This document shows, piece after piece, positions 1,247 through 27,624 of a stretch of 64,000 bases of DNA. The notes under the pieces are model-generated. The model saw only the letters and a program-made list of their open reading frames with translations, was not told where the DNA came from and ran no database searches. Each line of letters starts with the position of its first letter. Position 1 is the first letter of the stretch. Source of the stretch: Yuukianura sp. NJ FZ-2021 (Eukaryota); the NCBI GenBank assembly GCA_046563655.1, contig JAJCTO010000012.1, positions 186,001 through 250,000 on the forward strand, in the 5' to 3' direction. The translations under genes were made by a program, and so were the position numbers.

Positions 1247-1641
1247 TGAAGTGCCCCGGGTTTCCCCCTTTAGGTTAGCGTCATTTGCCCTTGAGGTTAG
1301 GGTGTGGCCCTAGGTTAGTGTAGTTAGGTTAGGGTTAGTCTTAGCGTTTAGTTGAGATTGGTTTAGAGTTAGCGGGAGTTTTGAGAGAGAGAGAGAGAGG
1401 TCAGGAGAGTATTGGAGACTGGTTGTGCCAGTCAGTCGGTTTTTGGTGTTCGATTCAGGATGAGCTGAAGTTTTGTATCATAGTGTACAATAAATATATT
1501 TTATAATTATTGTCGTCGTGTCTTCGTGTTGTTTCATTTGGTGTCCCTTTTGGTCCTCAGTTTCGTTGCATGAGTCCGGCAGTGCTCGGATCGTAGTCTG
1601 GAGGCCATCTTTGGCAGTTTTACGTAGCACGAAGTGCTACA
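1247..1641 (+). repeat. 5' LTR of element A (end at 1641 or 1643)
   Basis: Starts TGAAG at the satellite junction, ends CTACA(CA) immediately before a TGG-starting PBS; contains AATAAA (~1489), (GA)n and TTAGG-like motifs; no second copy is available to fix the boundary. Confidence 0.75.
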
Positions 1642-1643
1642 CA

Positions 1644-6853: not shown

Positions 6854-6913
6854 AACGTGCTCTGTTCAGTTGTTCTTATTTAGTTATTTGGAAGTCATTT
6901 CCTGACTTCCATC

Positions 6914-8122
6914 ATGCCATCATCAATTGTTAGTGATGTGGTTCCAGTCAGTGGAAAGAAAAAGAAAACTCAAGATTACTGGAAGAAGAGACGGGAGTGC
7001 GAATTGAGGTATGGTACTGCTGATAAGAGTCCACAGGAACGTAAGGACATGTTTTTATTCGAGTCTGCTCAACGGAATTCATGGGATGAATTCCCGTACA
7101 AGTATCATCCTCACACGTCATTAGTGAAAATGTTTCGGTTGTGGGATGCAGTTATGGAGCCCTCAAAAGGAAACATCTGTGACGAAAGACAGCTGGTACC
7201 AATTCGCATTATTGATACAGAAGCTAAGTTCATGGTTATGCTTGGTTTGTTGAGAGCCGAACGAGTTATAAGTGTTGACATGGAATTCAGTCATGAGAAA
7301 GGATATCGTGACCGTTATGTTTGTTTAGTGCAGATATCGACTAAGGAATCGGATTTCATCATTGATCCATTTGTCGTGCCCATTCAGATGCAATTGTTAC
7401 GTGAAGTGTTCTCAAATGGAAATTATATCAAGATTCTGCATGGAAGTGTAAATGACATGTTCATGTTCCAGCTCCACTACCAAATCTTCTTCGTGGGTGT
7501 TATTGACACGCAAATGGTGGATTCTGTCTTTGGAGGGACTCAAGGACGTGGATTGGACAAAGTGATTCGTGACTACTTGCCTGGTGTGAAAGTGTGCAAG
7601 GATTGTCAACTTGCTGATTTCAGGATCCGTCCAATTAAAAACATGCATCCAGATATGATTCAGTATGCCAGGAGTGACACACATTTGTTGTTACGTGTAT
7701 TTGAAGTCATGAAGAAACGCTATGACTTCAAAAGTGAAAGTGTTAAGTGGAATGAGGTTGTCCAGTTGTGTAATAATTTGTGCTTAAAAGTATACAAATT
7801 TAAGCCTAATCCAAGTGCCCGTGAGATTATGGCTAAAGTGAGCATATGTGACGTAAGTGTCACTATGATGGAGCAAGTGGTCAGCTGGAGAGACTTGGTT
7901 GCCAGGGAGATGGACGTTCAACCAAAGGAAGTCATTGCTGATGTTACTTGTGCTCAATTGGTCAAGGATGGGCCTAAAAATACGTTGGACATTGTAAAAG
8001 TGATTGGCAAAAATGTTTTGTCATCTGGTCATGTGGATATGCTATTGGAAATTTTTGTATCTACTAAAAGAGTGGGTGGAGTCACAGAAGTTGCTGCTGG
8101 AGAAAATGAGTTACTTTTCTGA
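6914..8122 (+). CDS. Rrp6/EXOSC10 (RNase D family) DEDDy 3'-5' exonuclease + HRDC domain, retrotransposon-borne; C-terminus truncated by satellite
   Basis: ExoI SVDMEF..VCLVQISTKESDFIIDPF; ExoII KILHGSVND; QLADFRIRP; ExoIII YARSDTHLLL; HRDC-like WRDLVAREMD; the last 7 codons derive from satellite. Confidence 0.88.
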   Translation: MPSSIVSDVVPVSGKKKKTQDYWKKRRECELRYGTADKSPQERKDMFLFESAQRNSWDEFPYKYHPHTSLVKMFRLWDAVMEPSKGNICDERQLVPIRIIDTEAKFMVMLGLLRAERVISVDMEFSHEKGYRDRYVCLVQISTKESDFIIDPFVVPIQMQLLREVFSNGNYIKILHGSVNDMFMFQLHYQIFFVGVIDTQMVDSVFGGTQGRGLDKVIRDYLPGVKVCKDCQLADFRIRPIKNMHPDMIQYARSDTHLLLRVFEVMKKRYDFKSESVKWNEVVQLCNNLCLKVYKFKPNPSAREIMAKVSICDVSVTMMEQVVSWRDLVAREMDVQPKEVIADVTCAQLVKDGPKNTLDIVKVIGKNVLSSGHVDMLLEIFVSTKRVGGVTEVAAGENELLF

Positions 8123-10598
8123 AATCTTCCTGAAAAGTACTACAGGAACCCAAGTTTAATTGGCGTGGATAGATCGCAATTAAATCCGGTTAGAGCTGAC
8201 TTAAAAGTCTGGATGAACCGCTCTGCCTCGGATTTTATCTTGGGTTGGTGTGCGCCACCCAGGGCAATGTCGAGCACCATTTTGACGCAAAAACGACTTA
8301 AATTTGTGAGAATGAACATGCAAATGTGAGAATGAACAGAAAGTAAATTACATTTTTGAAATCCTCATAAAAAGTGCTACAGGAACCCACTTTCACTTGC
8401 TGTGTCGTCCCTCATCTTGTTACCTTTATTTATGAAAATTCATGTTTCATAACAAAGAATTCAAAAGAAATGCATTCCGGAACGATGCTTGGTAAAAGTC
8501 AACTATATTTTTGAAATCCTCATAAAAAGGGCTACAGGAACCCACTTTCACTTGCTGTGTCGTCCCTCATCTCGTGACTTTATTTTATGAAAATTTATTT
8601 CAAAACAAATCATTCGAAAAACTCCCACGCGTAGCAATGCCGAGAGAAAATGAGTTACTTTTTTGAAATCTTCCTGAAAAGTACTACAGGAACCCAAGTT
8701 TAATTGGCGTGGATAGATCGCAATTAAATCCGGTTAGAGCGTACTTAAAAGTCTGGATGAACCGCTCTGCCTCGGATTTTATCTTGGGTTGGTGTGCGCC
8801 ACCCAGGGCAATGTCGAGCACCATTTTGACGCAAAAACGACTTAAATTTGTGAGAATGAACATGCAAATGTGAGAATGAACAGAAAGTAAATTGCATTTT
8901 TGAAATCCTCATAAAAAGTGCTACAGGAACCCACTTTCACTTGCTGTGTCGTCCCTCATCTTGTTACCTTTATTTATGAAAATTCATGTTTCATAAAAAG
9001 AATTCAAAAGAAATGCATTCCGGAACGATGCTGGGTAAAAGTCAACTATATTTTTGAAATCCTCATAAAAAGGGCTACAGGAACCCACTTTCACTTGCTG
9101 TGTCGTCCCTCATCTCGTGACTTTACTTTATGAAAATTTATTTCAAAACAAATCATTCGAAAAACTCCCACGCGTAGCAATGCCGGGTGAAAATGAGTTA
9201 CTTTTCTGAAATCCTCCTGAAAAGTACTACAGGAACCCAAGTTTAATTGACGTGGATATGTCGCAATTAAATCTGGTTAGCGTGTACTTAAAGATCTGGA
9301 TGAAACGCACTGCCTCGGATTTTATCTTGGGTTGGTATGCGCCACCCAGGGCAATGTCGAGCACCATTTTGACGCAAAAACGACTTAAATTTGTAAGAAT
9401 GAACATGCAAATGTGAGAATGAACAGAAAGTAAATTACATTTTTGAAATCGTCATAAAAAGTGCTACAGGAACCCACTTTCACTTGCTGTGTCGTCCCTC
9501 ATCTTGTTACCTTTATTTATGAAAATTCATGTTTCAAAACAAAGAATTCAAAAGAAATGCATTCCGGAACGATGCCTCGTATTTTATCTTGGGTTGGTAT
9601 GCGCCACCCAGGGCAATGTCGAGCACCATTTTGACGCAAAAACGACTTAAATTTGTAAGAATGAACATGCAAATGTGAGAATGAACAGAAAGTAAATTAC
9701 ATTTTTGAAATCGTCATAAAACGTGCTACAGGAACCCACTTTCACTTGCTGTGTCGTCCCTCATCTTGTTACCTTTATTTATGAAAATTCATGTTTCAAA
9801 ACAAAGAATTCAAAAGAAATGCATTCCGGAACGATGCCTCGTATTTTATCTTGGGTTGGTATGCGCTACCCAGGGTAATGTCGAGCACCATTTTGACGCA
9901 AAAACGACTTAAATTTGTGAGAATGAACATGTAAACGTGAGAATGAACAGAAAGTAAATTACACTTTCGAAATCCTCATAAAAAGGGCTACAGGAACCCA
10001 CTTTCACTTGCTGTGTCGTCCCTCATCTTGTTACCTTTATTTATGAAAATTCATGTTTCAAAACAAAGAATTCAAAAGAAATGCATTCCGGAACGATGCT
10101 GGGTAAAAGTCAACTATGTTTTTGAAATCCTCATAAAAAGGGCTACAGGAACCCACTTTCACTTGCTGTGTCGTCCCTCATCTTGTTACCTTTATTTATG
10201 AAAATTTATTTCAAAACAAATCATACGAAAAACTCCCACGCGTAGCAATGCCGGGAGAAAATGAGTTACTTTTCTGAAATCTTCCTGCAAAGTACTACAG
10301 GAACCCAAGTTTAATTGGCGTGGATAGATCGCAATTAAATCCGGTTAGAGCGTACTTAAAAGTCTGGATGAACCCCTCTGCCTCGGATTTTATCTTGGGT
10401 TGGTGTGCGCCACCCAGGGCAATGTCGAGCACCATTTTGACGCAAAAACGACTTAAATTTGTGAGAATGAACATGCAAATGTGAGAATGAACAGAAAGTA
10501 AATTACATTTTTGAAATCCTCATAAAAAGTGCTACAGGAACCTACTTTCACTTGCTGTGTCGTCCCTCATCTTGTTACCTTTATTTATGAAAATTTAT
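8099..10598. repeat. Satellite DNA array (block 2)
   Basis: Same monomer family as 1-1246. Confidence 0.97.
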
Positions 10599-11134
10599 TG
10601 AGGGGTTGCAATGCCCCGACGACTGGCACACTGGCCACTCGAAATAAATGAGATGATGTGGGGCAGAGATCACGAGAGCTGTAAACGGATAATGAACTTT
10701 ATTTACAGTAATTAGGATAGAGTTTACGTTCTAATGAGAGCCAAATGTTGAATTGATGAAGTGTAGAGGTTGGTGGGGCTCGGTCCTGACAGGATTGACC
10801 AGGTACTGGTCCGGTGGGGCTTGTAGAGGTCACGTCCGTGTCACACAATAGATCCGGCGTGGTCCAGTGGCCAATCCAAGATGGAGGAGATGTGGAGAGA
10901 GACGGGACAAGATCCGGGCAGAGTGACGGTTGGAGTTGGACTGTTGTATGGACAGGAGTGGACTGGAGTGACGATGACGAGACGAGATGCATGTCCAAAT
11001 AGATGATGCAACTTCCCGGTTTTGGTGGTGAGGATATGGAGTTGTTGTTGTGCTGCTGCTGGAAGGACGAAGGGGGAGAAGAGGGGAAAGGGAACCAAAG
11101 TGGCTATAGTGGTTTGTGGGGAATAACCCCCACA
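10599..11134 (-). repeat. 3' LTR of element B (536 bp)
   Basis: Matches 33948-34508 apart from about 9 substitutions, a 24-bp indel and a 1-bp indel (counted by eye). Confidence 0.93.
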
Positions 11135-11186
11135 GGTCCCCAACGACCTGGAGACGTCCCGGCGACATTGGAAGAAGACGTGGGTG

Positions 11187-12407
11187 TTATTTTGGTGGAG
11201 CTGGAGGATCTCGGCGTTTTGGGGAATTCTTCCTTAGCGGAGGTGGAGCATTGGCCGAGTTCAATGCCCACCACCGAGCACGTCTCTGCTGCCGATTCGG
11301 AGCTGGTGGATTTGGTGGGACAGGGGGAAAACGTCCTTGTACAGGAGCTGGGGGAGCTGAGGAAGCTGAAGCTGCTGGAGCTGAAACTACTGGAGCTGGA
11401 ACTCCTGGAGCTGGGGTTAAATTTGAAGTTGGTGGGGAGTTGAAAGTGAAAGTAACCGAGGTTGCTGAATTTGGGAGAAGAGTGTAGTATGGGAAGTATC
11501 CAGGGGGAATTGATGAAAATGGGAATTGTGAAGTTGCAGAAGTGACAGGAACGGTAATTGAAGTGGAAGTGGACGGAATTTGTGAATTTGACCAAGTGGC
11601 TGGAGAAACTGGACGTGAATTTGGAGAAAGTGGCCGAATTTGGGGGGAAGCTGAGCGATTTCGGGGTGGAGCTGGACGAGCGTTGTACGGAGAGGGCCGA
11701 TTGGAACGGAATTGAGCTCGAACAGGGGGAACAGATTTTGACGAAGTGCTGGGTCCAGGGTTTTGGGGGTTTTGGGGGGTGCTTGGGGACAAGGAAACGT
11801 TTGACATTTTGCGTGTCAAAGCTGTAGGGGAGCTGGATCGCGAACGACCAACTGGGGGTTGTTTTGGGGGTCCATTTGGAAACTGCAAATCCAGAAGCGA
11901 GGGAATCTTCGCAGATCCAAGCCGCTGAGCCTGCAGTTTGGATTTTGGCGCTGGGTCACGAGGACGACGAAACGTGGCAGAATCTTGGGACTTGGGGGGA
12001 ACAACCACGACGACCGAAGCAAGTCTTGGGCGTGGTGCTGGAGGAGGAGCCGAAACCATGTCCTGGAGTGACTTTTGGGGGGAATTTGGTTGGAAGCTGC
12101 TAGAGCTTGGGGAAAACAACTGCCGATTGAGCTTTTTCGGAGATTTTGGAGGGGAAGCAGCAGCAAGGGGCATGTCCCAGTCGTCATCGGGAATCCGAGC
12201 AATGGCGGGCGTAGAAATTGGAGCAGCAATGACCGTAGGAGACGGAGACGAAGAGGATGACGAAGAGGATGAAGAAGACGGAGAAACAGCATTATTTTGA
12301 GGAGGAGAGTTCAACAAGTCATCTTCCGCAGCCAAATCGATCTCGGCGATTCCTTCAGAGGCATCATCTCCTTCGTCCATCATGTCATCATCGTGAGGGG
12401 GGTCCAT
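11187..12407 (-). CDS. ORF3 of element B: 406-aa Pro/Ser-rich, probably disordered protein of unknown function
   Basis: Long ORF between the integrase stop and the 3' LTR; ATG immediately preceded by a polypyrimidine tract + TAG acceptor; acidic N-terminus, basic C-terminus. Confidence 0.65.
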   Translation of the reverse strand: MDPPHDDDMMDEGDDASEGIAEIDLAAEDDLLNSPPQNNAVSPSSSSSSSSSSSPSPTVIAAPISTPAIARIPDDDWDMPLAAASPPKSPKKLNRQLFSPSSSSFQPNSPQKSLQDMVSAPPPAPRPRLASVVVVVPPKSQDSATFRRPRDPAPKSKLQAQRLGSAKIPSLLDLQFPNGPPKQPPVGRSRSSSPTALTRKMSNVSLSPSTPQNPQNPGPSTSSKSVPPVRAQFRSNRPSPYNARPAPPRNRSASPQIRPLSPNSRPVSPATWSNSQIPSTSTSITVPVTSATSQFPFSSIPPGYFPYYTLLPNSATSVTFTFNSPPTSNLTPAPGVPAPVVSAPAASASSAPPAPVQGRFPPVPPNPPAPNRQQRRARWWALNSANAPPPLRKNSPKRRDPPAPPK

Positions 12408-12451
12408 CTAAAAATATATAAAAAGAACAGCATCAGTATTTAATTACTGAG

Positions 12452-14728
12452 TCAGCGCTTCTTTGGCTTTGCGAGGCGGGAAATGCAAGACAGAGCTTTG
12501 GTGTGAGCCGCGCGTTTCGTACGACCAGAAATCGGAAGTTTGACGCTGGCAGGGGCGCAAACTATGGGGATTTTACTCGCAGCGGGATGCAGGGAATACT
12601 GGGCGGGTAAAATTGGTGGAATTAGGATTTCTGGGTCACGGCTTTGATTTTGGTTATTTAAGTCAACATTAGGGGGGTCAGAATTTTGGTTTGACGCAAT
12701 GGGAAGCGTAACAGGGTCATTTTGCTCAGTTGGAAATGGCAATTTTGGTAAGTTAGAGGACAAATCAGGGTCAGACACTGGAGGGGGGACAAAATCGTTA
12801 TCAGACGACTGAGAGGAACTACTGTCTGCATCAGACGTGTCATAAACACGCTGATTGTAAGGTTTAAGGCGCTGAACGTTCACGACTGTCTCGTGAGGCT
12901 GCCGAGGGGGGACCGAAGTAATTCGAACAGTGCCATTATGGAGGACGTCAATGACTTTGTAAGGGCCAATCCATTTCTTCGTAAATTTGCCGACACGACC
13001 TTTTTTCCGCTGAAAGTTCCTGAGCAGAACTTTCATACCAACGACATAAGTGGGGAAACGGATCTGTAACTGGGCCTTAACTCTGAGTAGCTGCTGCTCA
13101 CGGGACAGCTCGTGGGCTAAGTTATTTGCAACAAATAATCGGTCAAGGGCATCGTCGGGCTCTAAATATTGCTGGGGAAGGGGAAACAGCCTGTCTACCG
13201 GCAAAACCGGCTCCCTACCAAAGACCGGAAAATAAGGAGAAAAATTAGTGACACGATGTACTGAACAATTAATGGAAAATACCACCCTGGGGAGATGTAG
13301 ATCCCAATCCTTGTGGTTTTCACTTACGAATTTGGCGATTACTGACTTTACCGTGCCGTTATGTCTTTCACAGAGGCCGTTAGACTTGGGATTATACGAA
13401 GTCGTGGATCTGTGCTCAATGGCATGGAGGGAAAGGAAATCTTCAAATTCGTCGGAAAGGAAAACCGTACCACGGTCTGACAGAATGATTTTGGGAATTC
13501 CGTGGCGAAAAAGGACGTGTTTGTTAAGCACTTTGATCGCTTGAGCAGAATCTGCTGCGGGAACTGGCCAGGCTTCTACGTAACGGGTATGGAGATCAAT
13601 TACTGTCAGAATGTACTTGTTACGTCTCGTTGTGACTGGGAATGGGCCTAAGTAGTCTAGGGCAATGGTGTGGAATGGAATGGCGGGAACGTCAAGACCG
13701 GCGCTATTTGGCGGGAGAGCAAAATTCCGTCTATTATGGATCTGACACAAGTGGCACGACGTGACAAATTTCACCACATCTCGATACATCCGGGGCCAAT
13801 AGAACCTGGAGCGAAGAAGATGCCAAGACTTGTGTAAGCCGAGGTGGCTAAGGGAGTCGTTATGAACGGATTCCATGGACGATTTTCGGAGGGATTTAGG
13901 GAGACAGAGACGCCAGAGATTGCCAAATTCCGAGTAGTTCATCCGGTACAAAATTCCATCTCGCAGACTGTACTCTCGCAGTTTCTTGGGTTCGGGCAAA
14001 TTATGGGAAGCACAAGTTTGTTCTGCTGTCAAATACTCAATCACAGGAAGCCATTCTGGCTCTTTAAGCTGGAGATCTTTTAGTTTTGCATCTCTAACTC
14101 TTCGTGGGGATACAGGGGAAACCGCTAAGGCGAGAAGATGATGTTCAATGGCCAAATGGTCTGTGTCAGAGGGGGCTGGGTCAACTGGGTTACGCGATAG
14201 GGGATCAGCATCGGTGTGAACACGACCACTCTTATGAACCACGGTAAAATCATAAGGTTGGAGGGCTAAAGACCAACGGGAAATTTGGCCATAGGGGTCT
14301 TTAAATTTTAGCATGTCACAAAGGGAATGGTGTTCAGTGACAACTTTAAAATGACGGCCGTATAAATACGGTCGAAATTTCTCTACAGCCCAAACAAAAG
14401 CCTTCATTTCCAATTGGGGGGTTCCAAATTTCGATTCGGAGGGGGAAACCGCTCTAGAAGCATACGCTACCACTCTCTCTTTTCCGTCCTGAATTTGGCA
14501 AAGGGTCGCTCCAAAACCGAGCCCAGACGCATCACAATGCACGGACGTTTCGGCTTCTTCATCGGGGAACGCAAGGACAGGGGGAGATGTTAATTTGTCT
14601 TTAAGCGTCTGAAACGCTGTTTCGGCTTCCGGGGTCCAATGGAACGGGGTACCACGCTTCCCAGCAACAATAAGATGTAGTGGACGGGCAATTTCTGCAA
14701 AACCCTCGATAAATCGGCGATAGTAACT
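12452..14728 (-). pseudogene. pol: Pol of element B, 3' part (RT connection, RNase H, integrase)
   Basis: Resumes in frame after the element C insertion (SYYRRFIEGFAEIARPL..HCDASGLGFGA); HHCC, DYLGP, SDRG, GPY motifs. Confidence 0.92.
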
Positions 14729-15374
14729 TGTTACGCTCCTTTTTGCGCAATACCGTTGGAAGGGCCCTCTGGGTCAACGTCCGTCTAGCCAAAGGGGTCA
14801 AGGGCCTTAGGGACCCCCTTCCCGGTGAGAGTTCGTCCGTTGTCGTGTAAGGAGTAATAATTAGTAAGTGAATTAAATAAAGAAATGAGGTTTCCCATAC
14901 CTTCTTTCTATTCTTTCTGTGCTTATTTATTCGTAGTGGTGTATCGGGGTACTTAGTGGTGCTATTGGGTAGTCTTCTTCTCAGCTTCCGTCCTTTCTTA
15001 CTTCTAAATTGTGACTGAATGTTATTTATACAGAGGTGCTTAATTGCTTAATTAAGGTTGCTAGGTGGTCGTTAATTGGAAATTTGAATAACAACTTTTG
15101 CTTCCCTAACCGCATTAGCGGCGCTGGCTGTGGTTGTTCTAATTGGATAAATTTTCGATTTTAAATCACTTGGCCTTGTGGTCACTTGGCCTTGTGGTTT
15201 GTCCGCTCAGAAGGAGTTAGCCTGGTGCTTGGAGTGCTTAGTGACTAAGTCTACTTGGCAACTAGATGCGCTTAGCAACTAGGTAGTGCACGTGCGACCT
15301 TGGTCAGTGTTTTGTGGAAGTGAAAGTACAAGTGCAGGTACTGAAAGTATTGTTGTGCAAGTGCAGGTGCAACA
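14729..15374 (-). repeat. 3' LTR of element C (646 bp)
   Basis: Identical to 26979-27624 except one C/T difference seen (15269 vs 27519); purine-rich tract AGGCAGTGGAAAG immediately upstream on the - strand. Confidence 0.96.
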
Positions 15375-15432
15375 CTTTCCACTGCCTAATCTTTTTGTCG
15401 TCCCGACAAAACAAGTGTGTGAAGCTGATGAC

Positions 15433-16683
15433 TCATTCCCGGTTTGGTTGTCGTCGTTCGAGTTCCAGAAGCCTATCCTGCATATCCCGAACCTGGCGTA
15501 CTAAGTCGGGGATGAGGACATCGGGTGGTGGTAAGTCGCCGAGGGTGAGGTGTCGTTGAAGTGCAGTGGGGTATGGCGTCATTCGTCGGCTGGATATGGG
15601 AGTGGTGGATTCTGCGGCTCGTCGGCTCGGTGAGCGTATCTCTTCCACGAATTCGGGGCCAAACCAGACAAGTAACTGTGGAATGAGTTGGGACGCTCGG
15701 GCTTCGTCCATTCCGGGTGGTTTGGGTAACGTGGTAATTCGTCGGGACAGTCCTCTGATGAACTCGAGATTGGTACCGGTCTTCCATCGCATGTAGTCGG
15801 CAACGAAAAGTTGAGTGGGAACGTCCAAGACTCGAGCGACATAAATGATGCTGGCGCGAATGCGTGTATCACGATGGTCGGTTGGTAGGGTATTTGAAAA
15901 GAAGTGAGTTAGGCGAAACGGTTCTGCGGTTTGTTCATGGGTGGTCTCGAGCATGCTTTGTAACAGCGCTGGGATGTCGATTGATCCGATTGCGTAACCG
16001 TCCTGTAGGTACACGGTAATATCTTTCCACAGTTGAGCGATTGTCTCTGTGTGATCAACCATGCGAGGGTCGTCTTGTTGCATGCGGTGTTGGGGGAAGC
16101 CCGCCGGTATGGTGACCGTGGATTGGAAGTAGCTTCTCAAGGTTCGTGGCGCTGCATGGTCTGGCAAACCGAATATGTGGCAGCGGATAGTCTCTACGTC
16201 CAAGACACTGCGAGGGATGACTCCGAAATCTCGCTCAATCCACTGTTGTTGCTCCTTTCCGTTGTAGCAAATCTTCATTATCCGTGGTGATGCAAACAGA
16301 GTTTTCAACGGGCCATGCGTGTCTTCATCTCTGGGGTCCATGATAAAGGTTTTGTTCTTGGATACAATGACCAAACGGCAGATCGCTCCGATGTATGAGT
16401 GTGGCCATTCGAAACAGGCAAAGACAACTGGAGAGAGTTCGATTGCTTGTGAGACATGTGCCGTAACTTCTTCTTTCGTCTTCAAGACCGTGTAGTTAGA
16501 TGGAGGTAGGAGCCATCCTGGCGTCCAAAGTGAATCGTGCATACGAGTTTCGTCAATGTCCAGCACTTCCATCCGGTCTGGGCGTATCATTCGTGCTCCG
16601 TCCGTGAGGTTGCGCACTTGTGTTTGTGCGTACTTGAGTTGTGGGAGGTTCCGTGAGACTGAAGGTGCGATGTCGAATTCCAT
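15433..16683 (-). CDS. Divergent Rrp6/RNase D-like exonuclease-fold + HRDC-like protein, catalytic acidic residues apparently lost
   Basis: HSYIGAICRLVIVSKNKTFIMDP / LKTLFASPRIMKICYNG..QWIERDFGV..SVLDV parallel the Rrp6 ExoI-ExoII regions; VARVLDVPTQLFVAD parallels VAREMDVQPKEVIAD of ORF 6914-8122; splice acceptor + GCCATGG upstream. Confidence 0.65.
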   Translation of the reverse strand: MEFDIAPSVSRNLPQLKYAQTQVRNLTDGARMIRPDRMEVLDIDETRMHDSLWTPGWLLPPSNYTVLKTKEEVTAHVSQAIELSPVVFACFEWPHSYIGAICRLVIVSKNKTFIMDPRDEDTHGPLKTLFASPRIMKICYNGKEQQQWIERDFGVIPRSVLDVETIRCHIFGLPDHAAPRTLRSYFQSTVTIPAGFPQHRMQQDDPRMVDHTETIAQLWKDITVYLQDGYAIGSIDIPALLQSMLETTHEQTAEPFRLTHFFSNTLPTDHRDTRIRASIIYVARVLDVPTQLFVADYMRWKTGTNLEFIRGLSRRITTLPKPPGMDEARASQLIPQLLVWFGPEFVEEIRSPSRRAAESTTPISSRRMTPYPTALQRHLTLGDLPPPDVLIPDLVRQVRDMQDRLLELERRQPNRE

Positions 16684-16802: not shown

Positions 16803-19076
16803 TCAATAGTTATAGCCCGGTTCAGGATTTGTGCCGTTTCCCACATTTGTTTCGGCAAATGAGACTCGTCTGGCCTCAGAAAGAGGATAGTCGTAGTAAG
16901 CTTTCGGTGGGGTCTCTGGTTGTTGAGTGGCTTTATGGAGTTCGTTGATCGTCTCGTACTCCGTCTCGATCCGTTCAGCAAGGTTGGCTAGTGCACTGGT
17001 CCTAGGGAACTTCAAGTTCGTCAGTGGGTTGCGTTTCACGACAGGGCTGCTTCGCGTCAATTTGGCAGTTTGGGTGGCGGCTGCATAGGTGATCACCGGC
17101 TCTTCCTGCTGGGTGGCCTGGTTCCGTCGTCGCATGATGCAGTACCAGTACAGCGTGAATATTATGATGATGGTCATCAGAACCAGGGCTAAGGCGAAGT
17201 TGCTAGCATGGTGGTAGTCGACGTGGTCCGGTTGTGCCGCGGCTCCTCGTAGTCTGTCCAGGAACGGCAAGGCGAAGGTCAAGCCCGGGAAGGCTTGCAG
17301 TTGCTTGTAGAGTAGAAACCCTAGTCCCAAAGTGAGGCAGACATTCCAAATGATCAATGCCGTGTTAGTTGATGGCGGAATGATGTGCATCAACTTAGGC
17401 ACCATCATGGTCTTGAGTTGACTGATTTCGGTCAAGTTTAGTCGAGGTGCGTCGAGGTCCCAGGATTCGTTGAAGACTGATTTCAAGTTAGGGAAGACAG
17501 TTTGGCTTCCATAGTTCCAGTCGTGGGCTGGTTTGAGCATGATGTCGATCTTCGACATCATTGCTGGTATGACTATAGTGACTCGTGGTGCGTCCGCCAT
17601 GCCCGTGGGGCATGGATATGGTGGTCGAATTGTCCGTCGTCCTGGAACTTGTAGTTCGCAGTCGCAAGAGAGTCTGACTTCGAGGCTTCCAATCTGGTCG
17701 TTTGGTGGCTGCACGGGGTGAGTCCTGTTGTCCGAGATCCCGCGTTCTCCGCACTGGATCTGCATTCCTTCTGGGGCCCCAGTCAAGATAAATGTGTGGT
17801 AATCCAATTGGGTCACGCTGAAGTCTCCCGGTGTGTTGAGGCACTCGAACAGGCAAACCTCGTTGAGTTCTCTAACGCTAGCACCGCGTAAGAGCCGTTG
17901 GGCGCATAAGTATCCGGTCATCGGGTCGGAGCTGAACTGAGGCACATGGCAAAGTCCAGTTTCCGGGTGGCATTGCTGGAGTTGAGTCCCTTGAATCGTC
18001 ACTAGTTCTTCTTCGTTTACTGCCAAGTAGGCAGGGGCGTGCTGAACAATGCAGGTGCTGCCCTTGTAACTGAACGGCACGTTTATCATTTCGTATAGCT
18101 TCCAGTTGTCTACAAGCTTCTTGATGGGTACCCGAATGCGGTACATAATCCGTCCTCCGTCGCTGAAGGCGCAGTCGGTGAGCTTCAGTTTGTAATACCG
18201 TGTGACTTCGCCAACGGGTATTACGAGTCCGTAGCCATCGGCTAGTAGCTTCCGGCTGGCTTTTTGGAGGTCCGCTGCTAACCTAGTTGGTGGCACTGCT
18301 AGAATGGAAATCGTTTGGGCTCGGCAGTGGTCCTGTAGATCCTTGAAGCGCATTAGTTCTCCAATTTGGTTGAGATAGTCGAATACTTGGAGGAAGGTGC
18401 GTCTGGTGGAGTCTCCTTCTGCGGTTAGAAGACTCAACGTCCTTTGCACGCTTTCGTTGGTTTCTCGCATGGCGGCCTGCTCTTGGTAAAGACGGTTGAC
18501 ATGATCGTGTGCGCTTGAGAAGAGTTTGGAGACATTCTTTCCAAAAAGTTCCATTGAGGTCTTCATGTTCATCACATTTTGGTTGTTTATGACAACCGAG
18601 CCCTTAATGGCTTCCATAAACTTCTCAATGCTCTGGCCGTTCACTTGGAGGTCCTGCATGTCTCTTTTGGAGACGAATCCGCAACAAAAGCTGAACATGT
18701 CGCTGACTAAGGTGAGAGGGTTGAAGGACTGCCATGTGAGGTCTCGCTTCCTGCGTCCAGGGTTTACTTCTGTCATCATCATGTCATCCTTGATGGAGGC
18801 CAGCATCTTAGTGAGGTAGGTTGTGTAGGGTCGTATGTTCACTGGGAAGGTGCAACCTGCGGTTTGCGCGTTCCTGCATGTTCCTTCCATAAAATTTCCG
18901 ATAGGGTTGGTAAAGTTGACTTGGATGTCGTAGACCAAGGGAATTGTAGCAGTGTACAGCTCCGTACCTTTGACCTCCCGAACGAGAGATCCTGTGGTGA
19001 CCCTTACTTCGGTGGGTTGAATTGAGAACGCATTGGTTCCTTCGAGGATGGTTACCAGTATAACCAGCAACTCCAT
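16803..19076 (-). CDS. env: Envelope / class I fusion glycoprotein (errantivirus Env / baculovirus F-like)
   Basis: Signal peptide MELLVILVTILEGTNA, furin site RRKR followed by a hydrophobic fusion-peptide-like segment, heptad region, Cys-rich ectodomain, N-glycosylation sequons, C-terminal TM segments; located after pol. Confidence 0.85.
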   Translation of the reverse strand: MELLVILVTILEGTNAFSIQPTEVRVTTGSLVREVKGTELYTATIPLVYDIQVNFTNPIGNFMEGTCRNAQTAGCTFPVNIRPYTTYLTKMLASIKDDMMMTEVNPGRRKRDLTWQSFNPLTLVSDMFSFCCGFVSKRDMQDLQVNGQSIEKFMEAIKGSVVINNQNVMNMKTSMELFGKNVSKLFSSAHDHVNRLYQEQAAMRETNESVQRTLSLLTAEGDSTRRTFLQVFDYLNQIGELMRFKDLQDHCRAQTISILAVPPTRLAADLQKASRKLLADGYGLVIPVGEVTRYYKLKLTDCAFSDGGRIMYRIRVPIKKLVDNWKLYEMINVPFSYKGSTCIVQHAPAYLAVNEEELVTIQGTQLQQCHPETGLCHVPQFSSDPMTGYLCAQRLLRGASVRELNEVCLFECLNTPGDFSVTQLDYHTFILTGAPEGMQIQCGERGISDNRTHPVQPPNDQIGSLEVRLSCDCELQVPGRRTIRPPYPCPTGMADAPRVTIVIPAMMSKIDIMLKPAHDWNYGSQTVFPNLKSVFNESWDLDAPRLNLTEISQLKTMMVPKLMHIIPPSTNTALIIWNVCLTLGLGFLLYKQLQAFPGLTFALPFLDRLRGAAAQPDHVDYHHASNFALALVLMTIIIIFTLYWYCIMRRRNQATQQEEPVITYAAATQTAKLTRSSPVVKRNPLTNLKFPRTSALANLAERIETEYETINELHKATQQPETPPKAYYDYPLSEARRVSFAETNVGNGTNPEPGYNY

Positions 19077-19110
19077 TCTGAAGATAGAAGATTTAGGGTT
19101 AGAACTTACG

Positions 19111-22100
19111 CTAAGTAAACCGTGCAGGTTTACGAATTTGTCGCCCTGCGCGTGTGACATAGGGCGTTTGTGACCTTTTGGTCTCATCTATGTCGGCCTT
19201 GTCGACCTTTGTGTCGACCTTCTCCTCTTCCGAGGACTCACTACTGCTCTCGCAACTGTCCTCGCTAGTCGAGGTTGCGGTAGAGCTACTGTCATTCTTT
19301 TCGTCGTCAGAAGTCAGAGGCGACGATGACGTAGGTATTGTAAAGTTTTGAAGCACTGGAGGCGGAGCATTGCCTTCCCCAACTTGAGTCGCTGCTACTC
19401 CCGGAGCAGCTTCAGAGGTCGCAAATTCGAGTAGTGATTCGGAGTATGGCTTAAGATGATCGATGTGGGCCCGAACATGAGGCGCGTCGGGATCGGCGCG
19501 TGGCACGCACCAGTACGAGAGTGGAGAGTGTTTCTTGGTGATGACGTAAGGTCCACGGTATCGCATCGCAAGTTTGCGAGAAGTACCGGGTGCTGGTTTG
19601 TGAACCTTGATGAGTACAAGGTCCCCTTCATTGTATTCGAAATCCCGTCGGCCGACGTTAAAGAGTTTGCATTGGCGTTGTTGGCTCTGTTGGAGACCTT
19701 TGCGTGCCGCGTCTCGTGCTTCCTGCATTCGCCGAATGCGCGTCGGGATGTCGGTGGATAGTCGGACTGTGTCGTACACGATGTCAAGAGGGTGATAGGG
19801 ATGACGACCGTAAAGGATATAATAGCTGCTATATCCAGTAGAGTCCTTGTGCACTGCAGTGTTGAGTGCAAAAACGGCGGATCCAAGATATTTGTCCCAG
19901 TTGCGCTGGTTCGACGAAACGTAGTTGGTGAGGATTTCTTCAATGCTACGGTTGTTCCGTTCCACCAGCCCATTAGTCCTGCTGTGGTATGGCGATGAAT
20001 AGACGTTGGTCGTCCCGATCAGGGAGTTGAATTGTTTGAAGAACGAAGCGGTGAATGTAGAGGCGTTATCCGTAAGGATCGTTTTGAAGACGCCGTGAAT
20101 TTGGATGATTTCCATAAGGAAATCTAGCATCGTTTTTGTAGTATTGTGGCGTATGGCCTTCGCGTAGACGTATCGTGAGAGGAACTCGACTAGGACGACA
20201 ATGTACTTATTTCTCGACTTTGTAGAGGGCAGGGGCCCGATGACATCTACACTGACTCGGTCGAAGAGGTCGCCGACAGGGATGGGTGACAACAGTCCGG
20301 CGGGGTGTGTGTTCCGGACTCGGCGCTTCTGACAGCTGGCACAGTTCCGTACCTACTCGGTTATAAGCGCGTCGAGCCTGAACGCGAATATGCTGTTCCG
20401 AGCCCTGGCAAGGGTTCGGGCGACGCCTAGATGACCCATGAGTACGTCGTCGTGAAAACGAGGTAGAACGGAGTGCATCATGTGCTTCGGAATTACAGGA
20501 AGGTTGGTCTTCGTTAGTTTGCACTTGTACTGTAGGAGGCCGTCGTCTACAGTAAAGCGTTTGTGGAGCTTGCTCCTAGCGTTTGTAGCGAGAATAGCTA
20601 AGATTTTCTGGAGCTTCTCGTCGTTTTGTTGTTGTTGCATGAGCTCGGTACGCGAATCTATCGGGGTAACAAATTGCATTGCGTACCAGTGTACTGGGAA
20701 CTCATCAGTAAATGTCGCAGCGTGATCCTCCACAGGGAAACGTGAGAGGCAGTCTGCTTGAACGTGGGTTTTCCCATTGACGTGCTTTATGGTGTAGTCC
20801 ACGTCTTGGAGTCGTAAAGCCCAACGTGCCAGGCGCGAGTTGCGCAAGTTCCTGCACGTCTTGAGGTAGCAGAGGGCGTGATGATCGACCACAATCGTAA
20901 AGGCTTTGAATCCAATATACTCTCGAAATTTTTCGATTCCCCACAGGACGGCTAGGCATTCTTGTTCACTGGTGTTGTAGCGCTCCTCAGCGCCACGGTA
21001 GGTGCGGCTGGCGTAAGCCACCACGCGTAAAGTGTCTCCCTCTCGTTGGTGGAGTATGGCGGCAATGCCCTTGTTTGACGCGTCTGTGTGTAGCTCGAGT
21101 TCTGCATTCTCATTAAAGAATGCGAGGATGGGTGCGGAAACCAAACATTGGCGAAGAGAATCGAAGGCTCCCTGTTCTTGGTCGCCCCATTGAAAAGCTA
21201 CGGTACTTTTCGTGAGCTCAGTCAGTGGTTTCGCAATTTGGCTGTAGTTCTTGATGAAGCGACGGTAATATCCAGTACAGCCAAGGAACGTCCGAACTTC
21301 GTGAACGTTGGTGGGAGGTCGCATCTCCGTGATGGCCTTAACTTTGTCAGGGTTGACGGCAACACCATCCCCCGTAATTATGTGTCCAAGAAGGGCTAAT
21401 TTCGTCTGCCCGAAATAGCATTTCGGGGGTTGAAGAGTAAGGTTGTAAGCACGAAACTGTCGGAAGACATTTTCCAAGTTGGCCAAATGTGACTGAAAAT
21501 CCTTGGCGAAGACGCATACGTCGTCAAGGTATGCAGTACAAATGGAGTGAATCCGCGTTCCAAGAACTGTCTTCATAAATGCGCTAAAGGCAGCTGGAGC
21601 GCAAGTTAAGCCGAATCCCATGTAGAGGTGTTCGTAAGCGCCAGCATGAGTCACAAAGCTCGTCTTTTCTACGTCGTCCGGATGAATCGGTATTTGGAAG
21701 TAGCCGGACATCAGATCCAGACAAGAGAAGTACTTGGCACCATTCAAGGAGGCCAATAGTTCAGAAATTACTGGCATAGGCCAGTTGATGGTTTTGGTGA
21801 CGAAGTTGAGTTTTCTCCAGTCAATGACCATCCGATACTTGTCACTGTTCGGTTTCTTAACTAAAGAAACTCCAGCGGCCCAAGGGGAGCGGCTTTCTCG
21901 AATAATTCCTGCTTGTAGAAGTTTGTCAACTTCTTCTTCAATTATTTTCTTCTCGGCCGGGCTTTTCTTGTAAGGTGGGCAGCTTACTGGTAGTGCGTCG
22001 CCAGTGTCGATACGGAAAGTTATATCTTTGGCTTTACCAAGTTGGTCCAAATTCCACGCGAAGATGTCGCCGTATTCTAAAATGAGAGCGCGGAGTTGCG

Positions 22101-24508: not shown

Positions 24509-25929
24509 GGTTTACTTCGTCTTCTTCTTCTTCTTCTGAAAGGATCAGATGATTAGTTGTATTTGGTCCCCTAGGGCGTGGGATGATGTAGGGTCGAGGG
24601 TTGGACAACTTCCTCCCTCGGCATTTGCAGAAAAATGAAATAGCTATTGCCCCCATGCCGGCTAGTAACCCTACTATGAAACCGCGCATGAAGGTGTCGG
24701 GGTTGAATATGTCGGACATAAGGTGGGCAGTTTGACAGTCTACCCCCAGTTGAAGATATGCGTATAGGGACTTGTCCATGAGTAGCTTGTTTTCCCGGGT
24801 TATCAGCTGGACCCGGCCTTTCTCGTAAGTGTAAACGCCTCGTTCCGTGTCCCGAATACCGACAAGGCGTAGATCTCGTAGGTGAGGGTAGGGCATGTAG
24901 ATGTCGGGCTCGTCCCATAAGGTTTGTATCATGCCCTTCTCTAGGTATAGCGGCCTCCATCCAGTAGTCAGCTTGATCCAAAGGGTGTGTTCTGATGGGA
25001 AGTACCCCAAAACTGGGTATGTAATGCCAAAGATACTTCGGTGCTTGAGTCCTGGTGTGATTAGGTGGCCGTCTGATGAATATACTCCGATTTGGTCGTC
25101 AACCATAACATAGAGGTAACTCGCGACGCCGACTGTGAAGTTGATTCGGCCGTCCGGCGGGAAGTCCTCGAAGAAATCGGCATTCTGCACTGGAGTAGGA
25201 AGTAGTGTCCCAGCTCCTGTAACTTTAACGTGACTTTTCCCGTGGAACAAGAGGTGGTCCCCATTGAGGTATCCAACATGATCGTACCACAGGGTACTCA
25301 GGCCTCGGATGTTTTCTCCATCCGGCCCTTCGTCGAAGAATCCTGGTGGGTACAGGACTTTCAGTGCTTCTTCGTCGGGAACTCTTTTCCGTAACGTGCG
25401 GCCAGAACTGGTACCATGCTGTCATCACAGATCCTATGGCACGAGTGTGTGGCAAGGCCAAGGCGTGGCCTATTTCGTGTAGGAGTACCGAAAATAGATT
25501 GACGTGTTCGTCGTCTTCTCCGAGAGACCAAGTCTCGTTTGCGTCTAGGTGGATTTGTCCGCCCATAACTGATCCTGGATAGTGGGGGTGGGCTAGTGTG
25601 CCTCCGCGTCCGTCACTGGCGTCATCATGAATTTCGTGTTCGAAAGTGATGGGGATGTCAGCACTGCCTTCTACGTAAGTAAAGGTGAAGTTGGAATAGC
25701 GTTGCCACTTCACAAACGCCAGACTGGCGTCTGCCAGTGCTTCTTCTCGGTCCATATCATATGGAGTAGGTCCAAGGGTCCAGGTAAGGTCCCTCTTGGT
25801 CCACCGGTGAGGGTTCACCGGACTTCGTCGAGTTCGTGTCGCCGGTGCCCACGGGCACATCATCGTTCCGGCGACCTCTGCAGCAAGCGTCGCTCCGACG
25901 CAAAATACAAGGAGCATCCGTGGAGTCAT
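24354..25929 (-). pseudogene. Membrane-type matrix metalloproteinase-like gene (signal peptide, furin site, M10A catalytic domain, hemopexin-like repeats, TM), single frameshift near 25385
   Basis: RTRR|..RWTKRDLTW, DGRGGTLAH, GQIHLDANETW, HEIGHALALPH (25447-25479), Met-turn GSVMTAWY; the +1 frame continues PDEEALKVLY..WYDHVGYLNGDHLLFHGK..FIVGLLAGMGAIAISFF. Confidence 0.85.
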
Positions 25930-26958
25930 ACCGTCCAGGTATCCTGTAACAGGGTTGAACCGCCAAGGTTCGGTAATTTGTTTCATTGCTTCGTTTGTAG
26001 CCTCGTTGTGTTTCGCTCCTCGGGGTATGCGACAGGTGTCGAAGAAAAACCTCTGTCCTACGTCATCGCCTCTCTCGAGTGGTCGCGACTCCACCCTCAA
26101 AGCGACTTCGATTACTTGCGCTAAATGGGCAGCTGTAGGGTCTGGGACCTCAACATTCTACAGCCCGGTCAAAATTTACACCGTTGCCGAGGTGACGGCC
26201 CACCGTCCCTCAACCCGTTCCTTCACGGAATATTTCTAGACGTTCGGTTTCATCTACGCCAAGCGCGGAGAGCAGTGAATCTTCTATACAAGTCGTTAAT
26301 ACGCCAGCCAGCTACCCAACTGGCTGGGGAAGAAAGTAACGTCGAAAGAGAAGTGACGGAAGGAGTTTCCTACTCCCCCTTCAATTGTGAGAACAATACC
26401 GCCAACCGTGTATAAGTCAAACTGATGGCTACCGCAGTAACCTATGACCTTTGGCTAGAGCCACAGCCCTATACGGTGACCTTTGACCTGAGGCAGAGCG
26501 TGTGTGACAACAATAGAGGACTTTCACCTCAGCGAGGGTCACCTTCTCTATTGTGTCTGTTCGATGCCTGTGAGTACTTGGTCACCAGGGGGGGATAGCA
26601 CTGGTCGCGGTCACTTACGTAGTAGGTAGCTTCGTAGAAATCAGCTTGACTTGTTCGTTGGTTGCCCCAGGGTAGTTGCCCTAGGAGCCCTTTAATACTT
26701 AAATCTAAACTTTATTAGATGTTTGTACGTTATTGTCTTCACATTACGTTATTGTCTTTAAGTTACGTTATTGTCCTAAGTTACTGACTACGTTATAATT
26801 TCGCGCACGCATTCATTCGATACGTTAAATTACGTTAACAGCTGCATTAAAGGTTGCGGTATTGTAGTAACAATAGTCTTGCCTGAACAAAAAGCGCAAG
26901 AAAGAAAAGCAAACAGCGGCAGAGGCGGGAACCTCTTATTGTTTTAAAAGAAATTGCC

Positions 26959-26976: not shown

Positions 26977-26978
26977 TT

Positions 26979-27624
26979 TGTTACGCTCCTTTTTGCGCAA
27001 TACCGTTGGAAGGGCCCTCTGGGTCAACGTCCGTCTAGCCAAAGGGGTCAAGGGCCTTAGGGACCCCCTTCCCGGTGAGAGTTCGTCCGTTGTCGTGTAA
27101 GGAGTAATAATTAGTAAGTGAATTAAATAAAGAAATGAGGTTTCCCATACCTTCTTTCTATTCTTTCTGTGCTTATTTATTCGTAGTGGTGTATCGGGGT
27201 ACTTAGTGGTGCTATTGGGTAGTCTTCTTCTCAGCTTCCGTCCTTTCTTACTTCTAAATTGTGACTGAATGTTATTTATACAGAGGTGCTTAATTGCTTA
27301 ATTAAGGTTGCTAGGTGGTCGTTAATTGGAAATTTGAATAACAACTTTTGCTTCCCTAACCGCATTAGCGGCGCTGGCTGTGGTTGTTCTAATTGGATAA
27401 ATTTTCGATTTTAAATCACTTGGCCTTGTGGTCACTTGGCCTTGTGGTTTGTCCGCTCAGAAGGAGTTAGCCTGGTGCTTGGAGTGCTTAGTGACTAAGT
27501 CTACTTGGCAACTAGATGTGCTTAGCAACTAGGTAGTGCACGTGCGACCTTGGTCAGTGTTTTGTGGAAGTGAAAGTACAAGTGCAGGTACTGAAAGTAT
27601 TGTTGTGCAAGTGCAGGTGCAACA
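26979..27624 (-). repeat. 5' LTR of element C (646 bp)
   Basis: Direct repeat of 14729-15374, followed by the PBS on the - strand. Confidence 0.96.

Follow-up and report, generated by a model that had tools for sequence, protein, structure and literature searches.

Why should two LTR retroelements of different families each carry, downstream of pol, an ORF related to the exonuclease Rrp6/EXOSC10, and what could such a gene do for its element? The window (the whole stretch of 64,000 nucleotides analysed here) holds three LTR elements embedded in satellite DNA of 262/544-bp units; elements A and C carry such an ORF, and element B of the same window has no exonuclease ORF. A and C belong to distinct families, as had been proposed, with an RT identity of only 33%. 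Both ORFs are very probably accessory genes that LTR retroelements carry in the 'ORF3' position, derived from the EXO(+HRDC) core of the Rrp6/EXOSC10-RNase D group. The best explanation of the locus as a whole, to which we assign a probability of roughly 0.55, is that these are captured Rrp6-core accessory genes that would act on RNA 3' ends. Element A is laid out as follows.

About 1375-8099, + strand: element A, Ty3/Gypsy
1375..1643, + strand: 5' LTR remnant, read from the sequence, left boundary approximate
At 1644, + strand: PBS-like TGGCGACCG, directly after the 5' LTR remnant
1759-3414, + strand: gag (Pfam zf-CCHC in the element's gag-pol region)
3393-4901, + strand: PR-RT (Pfam RVT_1 2.4e-31)
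4880-6853, + strand: RH-IN (Pfam RT_RNaseH 3.9e-29, Integrase_H2C2 2.6e-20, rve 6.6e-14)
6914..8122, + strand: ORF3 (P0001), Rrp6/EXOSC10-like EXO+HRDC core (Pfam, PDB alignment)

Satellite lies on either flank of element A, and the left satellite homology stops at ~1368. A second LTR copy is absent from the window, and element A, a single truncated copy, has no 3' LTR. The exonuclease ORF is separate from pol, its ATG at 6914 lying 61 nt past the pol stop, and its native C-terminus is lost because the satellite resumes at 8099, the final seven codons and the stop being satellite sequence. The EXO domain of P0001 matches PF01612 at E 5.9e-27 (Pfam), the HRDC match (0.003) falls under the Pfam cut-off, and residues 104-373, which run from EXO through HRDC, align to solved Rrp6/EXOSC10 with an E of 1.9e-28. 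Rrp6/EXOSC10 accounts for 13 of the 17 PDB sequences that match at E<=0.01 (1.9e-28 to 1.2e-22). The DEDD-Y set is complete (D132, E134, D191, Y261 and D265), and none of the five varies in an alignment to Rrp6-like proteins, to which P0001 is 20-29% identical. A specific catalytic relative found elsewhere, P0003, shares 33% identity and is its sister in the tree (SH-aLRT 95). The prediction for P0001 is an active 3'-5' exo(ribo)nuclease that stands on its own.

Element C lies on the opposite strand and is complete.

14728-27624, - strand: element C, 12.9 kb, delimited by paired LTRs
26978..27624, - strand: 5' LTR, a 647-bp repeat of 14728-15374
26976-26961, - strand: PBS-like TGGTGCATTTGCCGAG, read from the sequence
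25225..26157, - strand: matrixin (metalloprotease) ORF upstream of gag (Peptidase_M10 1e-34)
23039-24511, - strand: gag (Pfam)
19111-22683, - strand: pol (Pfam)
16803..19187, - strand: F-type envelope-like ORF (Baculo_F 3.9e-5, under the Pfam cut-off)
15433..16683, - strand: last ORF (P0002), Rrp6-type EXO-like, predicted catalytically dead (profiles, model)
14728..15374, - strand: 3' LTR (647-bp repeat)

The 647-bp LTRs are 99.8% identical, and the family is high-copy and young. The pol of the present copy contains one in-frame stop (20353-20355), and the env-like translation has a signal peptide, an RRKR site and a transmembrane segment. P0002 begins 120 nt past env and stops 58 nt short of the 3' LTR; the claim that the exonuclease gene comes last in both elements is secure for C and provisional for A, where satellite follows from 8099 in place of a 3' LTR. 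Three regions can be delineated in the encoded protein.

Residues about 70-272: EXO domain, diverged Rrp6-type
Residues about 279-361: helical HRDC-like region after EXO, unproven
Residues 403-426: C-terminal helix

Taken alone, P0002 matches PF01612 weakly (9.3e-5, 22.7 bits against a cut-off of 23.6) and its best PDB match has an E of 1.1e-4. Profile comparison (hhalign) gives 97.5% for the protein alone and, once a relative is included, 98.3% (E 1.5e-14, residues 71-272). In a representative search of 1.84 billion proteins it has 10 matches at E<=0.001, nine of which contain PF01612 at the same threshold and eight of which contain HRDC; the tenth, P0004, reaches 0.0011 for PF01612. The top 13 matches in the PDB profile search are all Rrp6/EXOSC10 (1.5e-6 to 5.7e-4), and this branch provides the best sequence matches for A and C alike; the RNase D enzymes of bacteria and trypanosomes are far weaker by sequence (E 0.85 and 0.08-0.11), although they are the top structural matches of the P0002 model (1yt3, Z 19.6, rmsd 2.9 over 183 residues; 7c4c, Z 18.1). 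Human RRP6 fits that model with a Z of 17.6, and Rrp6 chains fill nine of the best 10 Foldseek rows. The AF2 model reaches a pLDDT>=70 at 228 of 427 residues (single-sequence model, pLDDT 36.8) and was built with an alignment that includes Rrp6 proteins; its fold match and the sequence evidence are therefore not independent. The Rrp6 kinship first proposed for ORF 15433-16683 is upheld by profile and structure for EXO, and HRDC stands in A, which aligns through both domains, but not in P0002, where no significant HRDC match was obtained (E 0.12 and 0.047). The division into one apparently catalytic and one dead protein also holds: all five DEDD-Y residues are present in A, and all five catalytic positions of P0002 are changed or deleted. 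P0002, which keeps the fold but none of these residues, is most probably a derivative that binds nucleic acid without cutting it and carries a helix or coiled coil at its C-terminus.

How, then, would the two proteins act? In the preferred reading of captured Rrp6-core genes, the A protein would trim or degrade RNA 3' ends in the nucleus, the C protein would bind RNA 3' ends without cutting them, and in both cases the element's own transcripts, or those that otherwise feed surveillance, would be processed at the 3' end, or would decay, in a different way. That both act on nuclear RNA 3' ends in this manner to the benefit of their element is possible, and we put it forward tentatively.

The original prediction had gone further and read the pair as one old retroelement gene family, a nuclease and a decoy, directed against nuclear-exosome decay or piRNA/siRNA silencing in the manner of a viral silencing suppressor. 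Cellular Rrp6 helps to silence retrotransposon RNA in yeasts and flies, which counts in favour of such a role, as do the derivation of both proteins from the Rrp6 branch and not from other DEDD families and the conservation of the dead form across organisms. EXD1 and Maelstrom, a precedent for dead DEDD proteins, serve the piRNA pathway (PMC5408684), and the first entry of a feature-based atlas for the C protein is an 'Exd1 homolog' cluster, whose score of 0.86 is below the counting level and serves as a lead only; EXD1 is, however, missing from the PDB profile matches of P0002 at E<=10. Neither protein has a recognisable exosome-cofactor-binding domain, PMC2NT not being found by Pfam in A or C. 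The motifs cited as common to A and C are present, but they are family-wide Rrp6 consensus motifs and do not link these two in particular, and direct comparison (BLASTP) gives E 0.014, with 18% identity over 87 residues. In the exonuclease tree the retroelement-type sequences form an unresolved polytomy with no joint clade, and A and C sit on very long terminal branches (3.7 and 4.67, the median being 1.05). A single clade of the four retroelement-type sequences is not rejected by the AU test (p-AU 0.247, lnL difference 0.59). The sequences support the descent of both element-borne ORFs from the Rrp6/RNase D branch of DEDD exonucleases, and the tree neither supports nor rejects a joint retroelement-borne origin. 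A single old family is accordingly not supported, and we regard the silencing-suppressor role as unlikely.

It is likewise improbable that these are enzymes of the replication cycle, processing the 3' ends of the element's own genomic RNA, tRNA primer or cDNA with no anti-defence role, the C copy being a structural or RNA-chaperone remnant. Such a role has been proposed for the DEDDy ORFs that LTR elements of rotifers and Terminons carry (PMC5408684, PMC6431247), RNase D-family enzymes mature the 3' ends of structured RNAs (according to the title of entry 1yt3), and the active site of A is intact. Yet most Ty3/Gypsy elements manage their replication with no gene of this kind, as the lack of one in element B illustrates, and a dead but conserved version fits an enzymatic processing step poorly.

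The two genes might also be passengers of no benefit, template switching having twice and independently captured a host Rrp6-like mRNA, with C a decaying relic whose frame is still open. Host sequences do get taken up by LTR elements, the long branches of A and C would fit, and the rotifer study reports no clear fitness signal: according to its Discussion, ORF3 transcription was not unambiguously linked to copy number, and within-genome evolution did not depart significantly from neutrality (PMC5408684). However, a neutral relic is very unlikely to have kept 416 codons open at about 50% GC. The P0002 ORF is intact and covered by contigs from two runs, with word depths in the hundreds (none of the runs listed as holding the stretch is RNA sequencing); none of the 12 indels listed of 138 breaks its frame, and all three of its variants among the 40 listed of 1,959 are synonymous (P 0.036), as compared with 10 of 12 among the variants listed in each of env and pol. 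A metagenome contig (L001/P0019) encodes a relative from another organism, 26% identical over 268 residues (E 1e-22), that shares the loss of ExoI, the D-to-Q change in ExoII, the D-H-x-E in the place of ExoIII and the C-terminal helical or coiled segment. This relative is a pseudogene with four in-frame stops inside the region aligning with P0002, which would suit a passenger, and no RT or IN lies nearby, so that its retroelement context is at most putative. The dead form looks maintained on this evidence, A keeps five of five catalytic residues in spite of its low identity to Rrp6-like proteins, and passenger status is distinctly unlikely. An Egalitarian-like adaptor, with C binding structured element RNA and its C-terminal helix linking a partner for RNA localisation or packaging, is highly improbable: the Egalitarian chains rank among the best structural matches (Z 17.9, with RNase D at 19.6) but are effectively tied with other DEDD folds, a similarity common to all DEDD domains that therefore does not discriminate, and even with a C-terminal segment conserved in the L001 relative and solved complexes that include a retrotransposon RNA signal ('ILS of I-factor mRNA', an entry title), the sequence match is E 0.37 for Egalitarian against 1.5e-6 for Rrp6.

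The genes of A and C belong to a described class, the DEDDy-type ORFs captured by LTR retroelements; the initial observation is largely borne out, but its standing as a discovery, based on the belief that no description existed, was overstated. Unrelated lineages of LTR retrotransposons have gained DEDDy exonuclease ORF3s independently of one another and share them with Penelope-like elements, the carriers being Juno, Vesta and Athena/Terminon of bdelloid rotifers (Rodriguez, Kenefick and Arkhipova 2017, PMC5408684), and a 2019 paper counts the DnaQ-like exonuclease among the well-known accessory domains that LTR transposons carry (PMC6338049). As in the rotifers, the exonuclease of A and C is a separate ORF downstream of pol in Ty3/Gypsy-like LTR elements, with an RNase D-like DEDD domain in unrelated element lineages of one genome. 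The rotifer ORFs, which have already been likened to the dead piRNA-pathway proteins EXD1 and Maelstrom, are reported to be closer to one another than to Rrp6, RNase D, mut-7 or WRN and to keep their invariant residues (DEED), unlike P0002, whereas P0001 is specifically Rrp6/EXOSC10-like with HRDC, a term that occurs 0 times in PMC5408684. Compared by description, the passages of that paper considered here present no fully inactivated form and no placement after an F-type env.

A shares with Rrp6/EXOSC10 the EXO (PF01612) and HRDC core and the DEDD-Y residues. Unlike the cellular proteins, A and C are ORFs free of introns that encode roughly 400 residues and reside in retroelements, without PMC2NT, with no visible C-terminal exosome-binding region (A is truncated there) and, in C, without catalytic residues. 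The dead DEDD proteins EXD1, Maelstrom and Egalitarian are RNA-binding or adaptor modules. The C protein would resemble them, judging by its model, as a DEDD fold without an active site, and Egalitarian and Exd1 are among its fold matches, but it comes from the Rrp6 branch. By description only, arenavirus NP and nidovirus nsp14 ExoN offer a further parallel, a cellular-type 3'-5' exonuclease captured by a replicating element, and the arenavirus exonuclease suppresses innate immune signalling (bioRxiv 10.1101/2021.02.01.429129); the viral enzymes are DEDDh exonucleases of RNA viruses, whereas those of A and C are of the DEDDy/Rrp6 type and reside in retroelements.

The exonuclease-like ORFs of elements A and C, two of the three LTR retroelements in the window, are very probably genuine accessory genes derived from Rrp6, a reading to which we assign a probability of about 0.9. 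Their surroundings are laid out here, with gene orders taken from a Pfam run on 19 stop-to-stop ORFs of the window.

1-1368, 8099-10598 and 34506-64000: satellite array of 262/544-bp units, about 38% GC
about 1375-8099, plus strand: element A, a Ty3/Gypsy-type LTR element
6914-8122, plus strand: exonuclease ORF of element A, encoding protein P0001
10599-11131 and 33948-34505, minus strand: LTRs of element B, which is interrupted by element C
14728-15374 and 26978-27624, minus strand: the 647-bp LTRs of element C, 99.8% identical
15433-16683, minus strand: exo-like ORF of element C, encoding protein P0002

All three elements display the Ty3/Gypsy domain order PR-RT-RH-IN in Pfam; LTR pairs were found for B and C, and PBS-like TGG motifs adjoin the LTRs. 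Element A reads gag, PR-RT, RH-IN and exonuclease ORF, while element C, a young insertion judging from the near-identity of its LTRs, encodes a matrixin ORF, an unassigned ORF, gag, RT-RH-IN, an F-type envelope-like ORF and finally the exo-like ORF. The envelope-like assignment combines a sub-threshold Pfam match to Baculo_F with a signal peptide, an RRKR site and a membrane anchor in the translation. LTR elements have inserted into the satellite array at least four times, once in nested fashion, a pattern suggestive of heterochromatin or of a centromere-like region. Flanked by 178-bp direct repeats of 99% identity, a 2.8-kb insertion in the satellite (55000-57838) lacks any long ORF, shows no resemblance to the proteins of A, B or C, and looks like a small non-autonomous LTR element. 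The last ORF of element B (11187-12407, minus strand) is a 406-codon, Pro/Ser-rich frame of low complexity without a Pfam family. It was considered as a third exonuclease and rejected on these grounds, and may encode a disordered protein or be no gene at all.

The case for element A is straightforward. Its exonuclease ORF is separate from pol, with the ATG at 6914 lying 61 nt past the pol stop codon, and P0001 matches the DEDD exonuclease family PF01612 at 95 bits over residues 108-279 (Pfam cut-off 23.6, E 5.9e-27). Thirteen of its 17 matches to PDB sequences at E<=0.01 are Rrp6/EXOSC10 (1.9e-28 to 1.2e-22), and the other four, namely a diDNase ancestor, RNase D, nanoRNase C and a mut-7 homologue, are far weaker. 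HRDC scores 17.8 bits, under the Pfam cut-off of 23.8; the phmmer alignment to solved Rrp6 extends over residues 104-373, through the WRD-x-VAR helix of HRDC, and on this alignment P0001 has an HRDC domain after the EXO domain. The five catalytic residues of the DEDD-Y motif (D132, E134, D191, Y261 and D265) are retained, without variation among the eight Rrp6-like proteins aligned with it. PMC2NT (PF08066), the N-terminal domain of cellular Rrp6, gave no Pfam match at E<=0.01 in the ORF of either element. A word-based homologue search with P0001 retrieved one relative, P0003, which is 33% identical, has intact catalytic motifs, has the strings DFIIDPFVV and IFFVGV in common with P0001 and resides on a 1.85-kb contig, too short to give it a genomic context. 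Among longer proteins, a word-based search for pol-exonuclease fusions returned 12 cellular Rrp6 sequences, all with PMC2NT unlike both retroelement ORFs, and none with RT or IN, which is weak evidence.

The element C ORF is more divergent. That it belongs to the element is unquestionable: it starts 120 nt past env, and 58 nt separate its end from the 3' LTR. As a single sequence P0002 scores 22.7 bits on PF01612, just short of the Pfam cut-off of 23.6, and its best PDB match is trypanosome Rrp6 at 1.1e-4, with Rrp6/EXOSC10 accounting for 13 of the 14 matches at E<=1; at this level the evidence for an Rrp6-type protein is marginal. A word-based homologue search with P0002 found no match, and scans of viral contigs with both family profiles found no relatives. 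Scanned in full with HMMER, 1.84 billion representatives yielded ten matches at E<=0.001 (1.6e-5 to 9e-4); PF01612 was detected at E<=0.001 in nine of them, HRDC in eight and PMC2NT in four. The tenth match, P0004, is a fragment with the unusual substitutions of P0002, and its source is a 9-kb metagenome contig, L001. The homologous frame on L001 is 26% identical to P0002 over 268 residues (E 1e-22), in an alignment that reads four in-frame stops through as X, a fifth TGA being located further downstream. A profile of just these two sequences aligned to an Rrp6-like profile with 98.3% probability in hhalign (E 1.5e-14), the match at residues 71-272 covering the whole EXO domain. In a search of the PDB the same profile ranked 13 Rrp6/EXOSC10 entries first (1.5e-6 to 5.7e-4), followed by trypanosome RNase D (0.08-0.11), Egalitarian (0.37) and RNase D (0.85).

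Structure prediction points in the same direction. An AlphaFold model of P0002 from an 11-row alignment placed 228 of 427 residues at pLDDT>=70, and residues 70-268 superposed on RNase D over 183 residues (Z 19.6, rmsd 2.9); the corresponding scores were Z 17.9 for Egalitarian and Z 17.6 for human RRP6. Foldseek returned Rrp6 chains in nine of its top ten rows. The model depends on Rrp6 rows, and AlphaFold on the sequence by itself gave a mean pLDDT of 36.8 and no usable model, so the fold match is corroboration rather than independent proof. Taken with the profile comparison, P0002 is predicted to contain a DEDD exonuclease domain. The evidence for HRDC in P0002 is no more than suggestive: a collinear match of 13-17 residues at VAR-x-x-D against the Rrp6 profile (E 0.12 and 0.047), a VAR-x-LD motif kept between P0002 and L001, a confident helical region at 279-361 (pLDDT 74-87) in the model, and Foldseek alignments to Rrp6 and RNase D spanning 310-352 columns. 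The HRDC and ExoIII segments of P0002 on their own had no significant match to the Rrp6 profile.

Whereas P0001 appears catalytic, the P0002 sequence has lost all the DEDD-Y positions and is predicted to be a dead form. The ExoI Asp and Glu positions are occupied by Ala/Phe or a gap, the ExoII Asp by Gln156 and the ExoIII Tyr by His222, and the ExoIII Asp falls within a four-residue deletion. The ExoI loss recurs in the L001 relative (VFSCF versus VFACF), as do Gln at ExoII and D-H-x-E in place of ExoIII. These common losses indicate that the inactivation is old and shared and no recent lesion. All five in-frame stops of the L001 relative (L001:2691-3902) are TGA, and reading TGA as sense restores a 477-codon frame; the stops could reflect mutational decay or a TGA-sense genetic code. 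Pfam detected only the exo-like domain and a dUTPase fragment (L001:1280-1588, E 2e-29; 1.1 kb upstream on the same strand) in the L001 ORFs and six read-through frames, with no RT or IN, and one of 17 window proteins, the element C exo-like ORF, matched the contig.

Whether the dead ORF is maintained was approached by comparing contigs of four coded sequencing runs with element C over its full length. None of the runs listed for the stretch is an RNA run. The main organism has the family in many copies: two runs gave 547 and 456 contigs, whose word depths add up to hundreds. Of the contigs over the exo-like ORF, several carry 5-21 differences without gaps and one has a single gap; none of the 12 indels listed out of 138 lies within the ORF. 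Among the 40 variant sites listed out of 1,959, all three in the exo-like ORF are synonymous third-position transitions (P 0.036, assuming a synonymous fraction of 0.33), and 10 of 12 are synonymous in both env and pol (P about 6e-4 each). The pattern is indicative of purifying selection on element C in its entirety, the exo-like ORF included, with a tiny sample of three sites in the latter; the run of the second organism, in which the bins over the ORF are without cover, carries no weight. The element C pol in this copy has one in-frame stop at 20353-20355 (minus strand), between RT-RH and integrase, which is absent from contigs of other copies. An internally deleted derivative joins 16990 to 25766, skipping 8,775 nt with 28 other letters in between, and its junction was seen in three runs and two coded organisms. 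Since the junction is upstream of the exo-like ORF the derivative would keep it, although junction and ORF occur together on no single listed contig. The 5' part of the element holds an accessory gene that is out of the ordinary for LTR elements, a matrixin-type metalloprotease ORF (25225-26157, minus strand; Peptidase_M10, E 1e-34) between the 5' LTR and gag. Where it overlaps the next ORF (25225-25421) four of five listed variants are synonymous in the other frame, and the protease frame therefore probably ends before the overlap.

How are the two genes related? The original prediction of two distinct Gypsy families, each ending in an Rrp6-like exonuclease-HRDC gene, one catalytic and one dead, holds in outline. 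Over 330 residues of RT, A and C share 33% identity, and the PBS-like sequences beside the LTRs differ, which identifies them as distinct families, and the catalytic residues divide as predicted. The fold, on which the prediction hinged for ORF 15433-16683, is borne out by the 98.3% hhalign match and the Z score of 19.6 to RNase D; HRDC is well aligned in A and only suggestive in C. The terminal position is evident in C, between env and the 3' LTR. In A the 3' end is cut by satellite: satellite homology resumes at 8099, so that the last seven codons and the stop of P0001 are satellite, A lacks a polypurine tract and a 3' LTR, and we infer that the exonuclease ORF is the last gene. By contrast, the motifs quoted at the outset as common to A and C are those of the Rrp6 consensus at large (DFIVD, IVKVLHG and WRD-x-VAR-x-x-DES), and P0001 compared directly with P0002 only just reaches significance (E 0.014). 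A 23-row tree groups A with P0003 (SH-aLRT 95) and C with L001 (99), and both pairs join cellular Rrp6 in an unresolved polytomy with very long branches. Constraining A, P0003, C and L001 to a single clade lowers the log-likelihood by 0.59 units (p-AU 0.247); a common retroelement origin of the two genes is thus neither supported nor rejected.

As to function, P0001, for want of PMC2NT, would act as a free-standing 3'-5' exo(ribo)nuclease that is not tied to exosome cofactors, and P0002 would be a non-cutting binder of nucleic acid or of a partner; both would serve their element by altering the fate of RNA 3' ends. This general role is a tentative proposal. The target may be the element's own RNA or cDNA, it may be host surveillance including small-RNA precursors, or it may be RNA transport in an Egalitarian-like manner, a protein that superposes well on the P0002 model and trails Rrp6 in the profile search. 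The counter-surveillance system originally envisaged is a more specific and rather unlikely version of the 3'-end reading. Its fullest form, in which at least two retroelement lineages recruited the Rrp6 core and turned it into active and dead 'decoy' forms that shield element transcripts from the exosome or small-RNA silencing, is a little less likely still; if true, retrotransposons would encode a suppressor of RNA surveillance that is conserved between distant hosts. Improbable as well is that the ORFs are functionless passengers, which would make them an ordinary extension of a published observation, given the pattern of synonymous variants in C, few as those sites are. The reading of Rrp6-derived accessory genes, in contrast, is real and well anchored, and its main appeal is that nature supplies an active and a dead form as a pair. 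That a dead form is kept suggests a need of the element for binding, besides cutting. Retroelement accessory genes are rare windows onto the limits to element spread, and the active and dead 'alleles' form a natural pair for asking if retroelements interfere with the surveillance of RNA 3' ends in the nucleus.

The phenomenon as such, of which no description was known at the outset, has precedents in rotifers. According to the available text of Rodriguez, Kenefick and Arkhipova (2017, PMC5408684), bdelloid LTR retrotransposons carry RNase D-like DEDDy ORF3s, acquired independently at least twice in the Juno and Vesta lineages; these ORFs are shared with Penelope-like Athena elements, their invariant residues (DEED) are intact, and the discussion takes in 3'-end processing, silencing of the mut-7 kind, and EXD1 and Maelstrom as dead DEDD proteins. 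The finding is repeated in PMC6431247, and PMC6338049 calls the exonuclease a well-known accessory domain of LTR transposons. In the openly available text that was covered, the rotifer work included, three things did not appear: an Rrp6-specific EXO+HRDC module in an LTR element, a fully inactivated yet conserved DEDD derivative in such an element, and a dead DEDD ORF after an F-type env in an errantivirus-like element.

Set against known systems, the two proteins differ from Rrp6 proper by the absence of PMC2NT; the C-terminus, where Rrp6 has its exosome-association region, is cut off in A by satellite at 8099. For EXD1 and P0002 the signals are mixed: EXD1 was absent at E<=10 from the P0002/L001 profile search of the PDB and its chains rank 33 and 35 in Foldseek, and a feature-based atlas lists the cluster 'Exd1 homolog' for P0002 at 0.86, a lead only. 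The rotifer ORF3s are not found by name among the homologue matches of P0001 and P0002, and the comparison with Juno, Vesta and Athena is by description. As in the rotifer elements, the exonuclease ORFs of A and C are separate and downstream of pol, the 3' LTR of A being missing. The rotifer DEDDy ORFs are without an assigned function; here the same enzyme class is found in a specifically Rrp6-like form, and a conserved version devoid of catalytic residues sits behind the envelope gene of a young, high-copy element.
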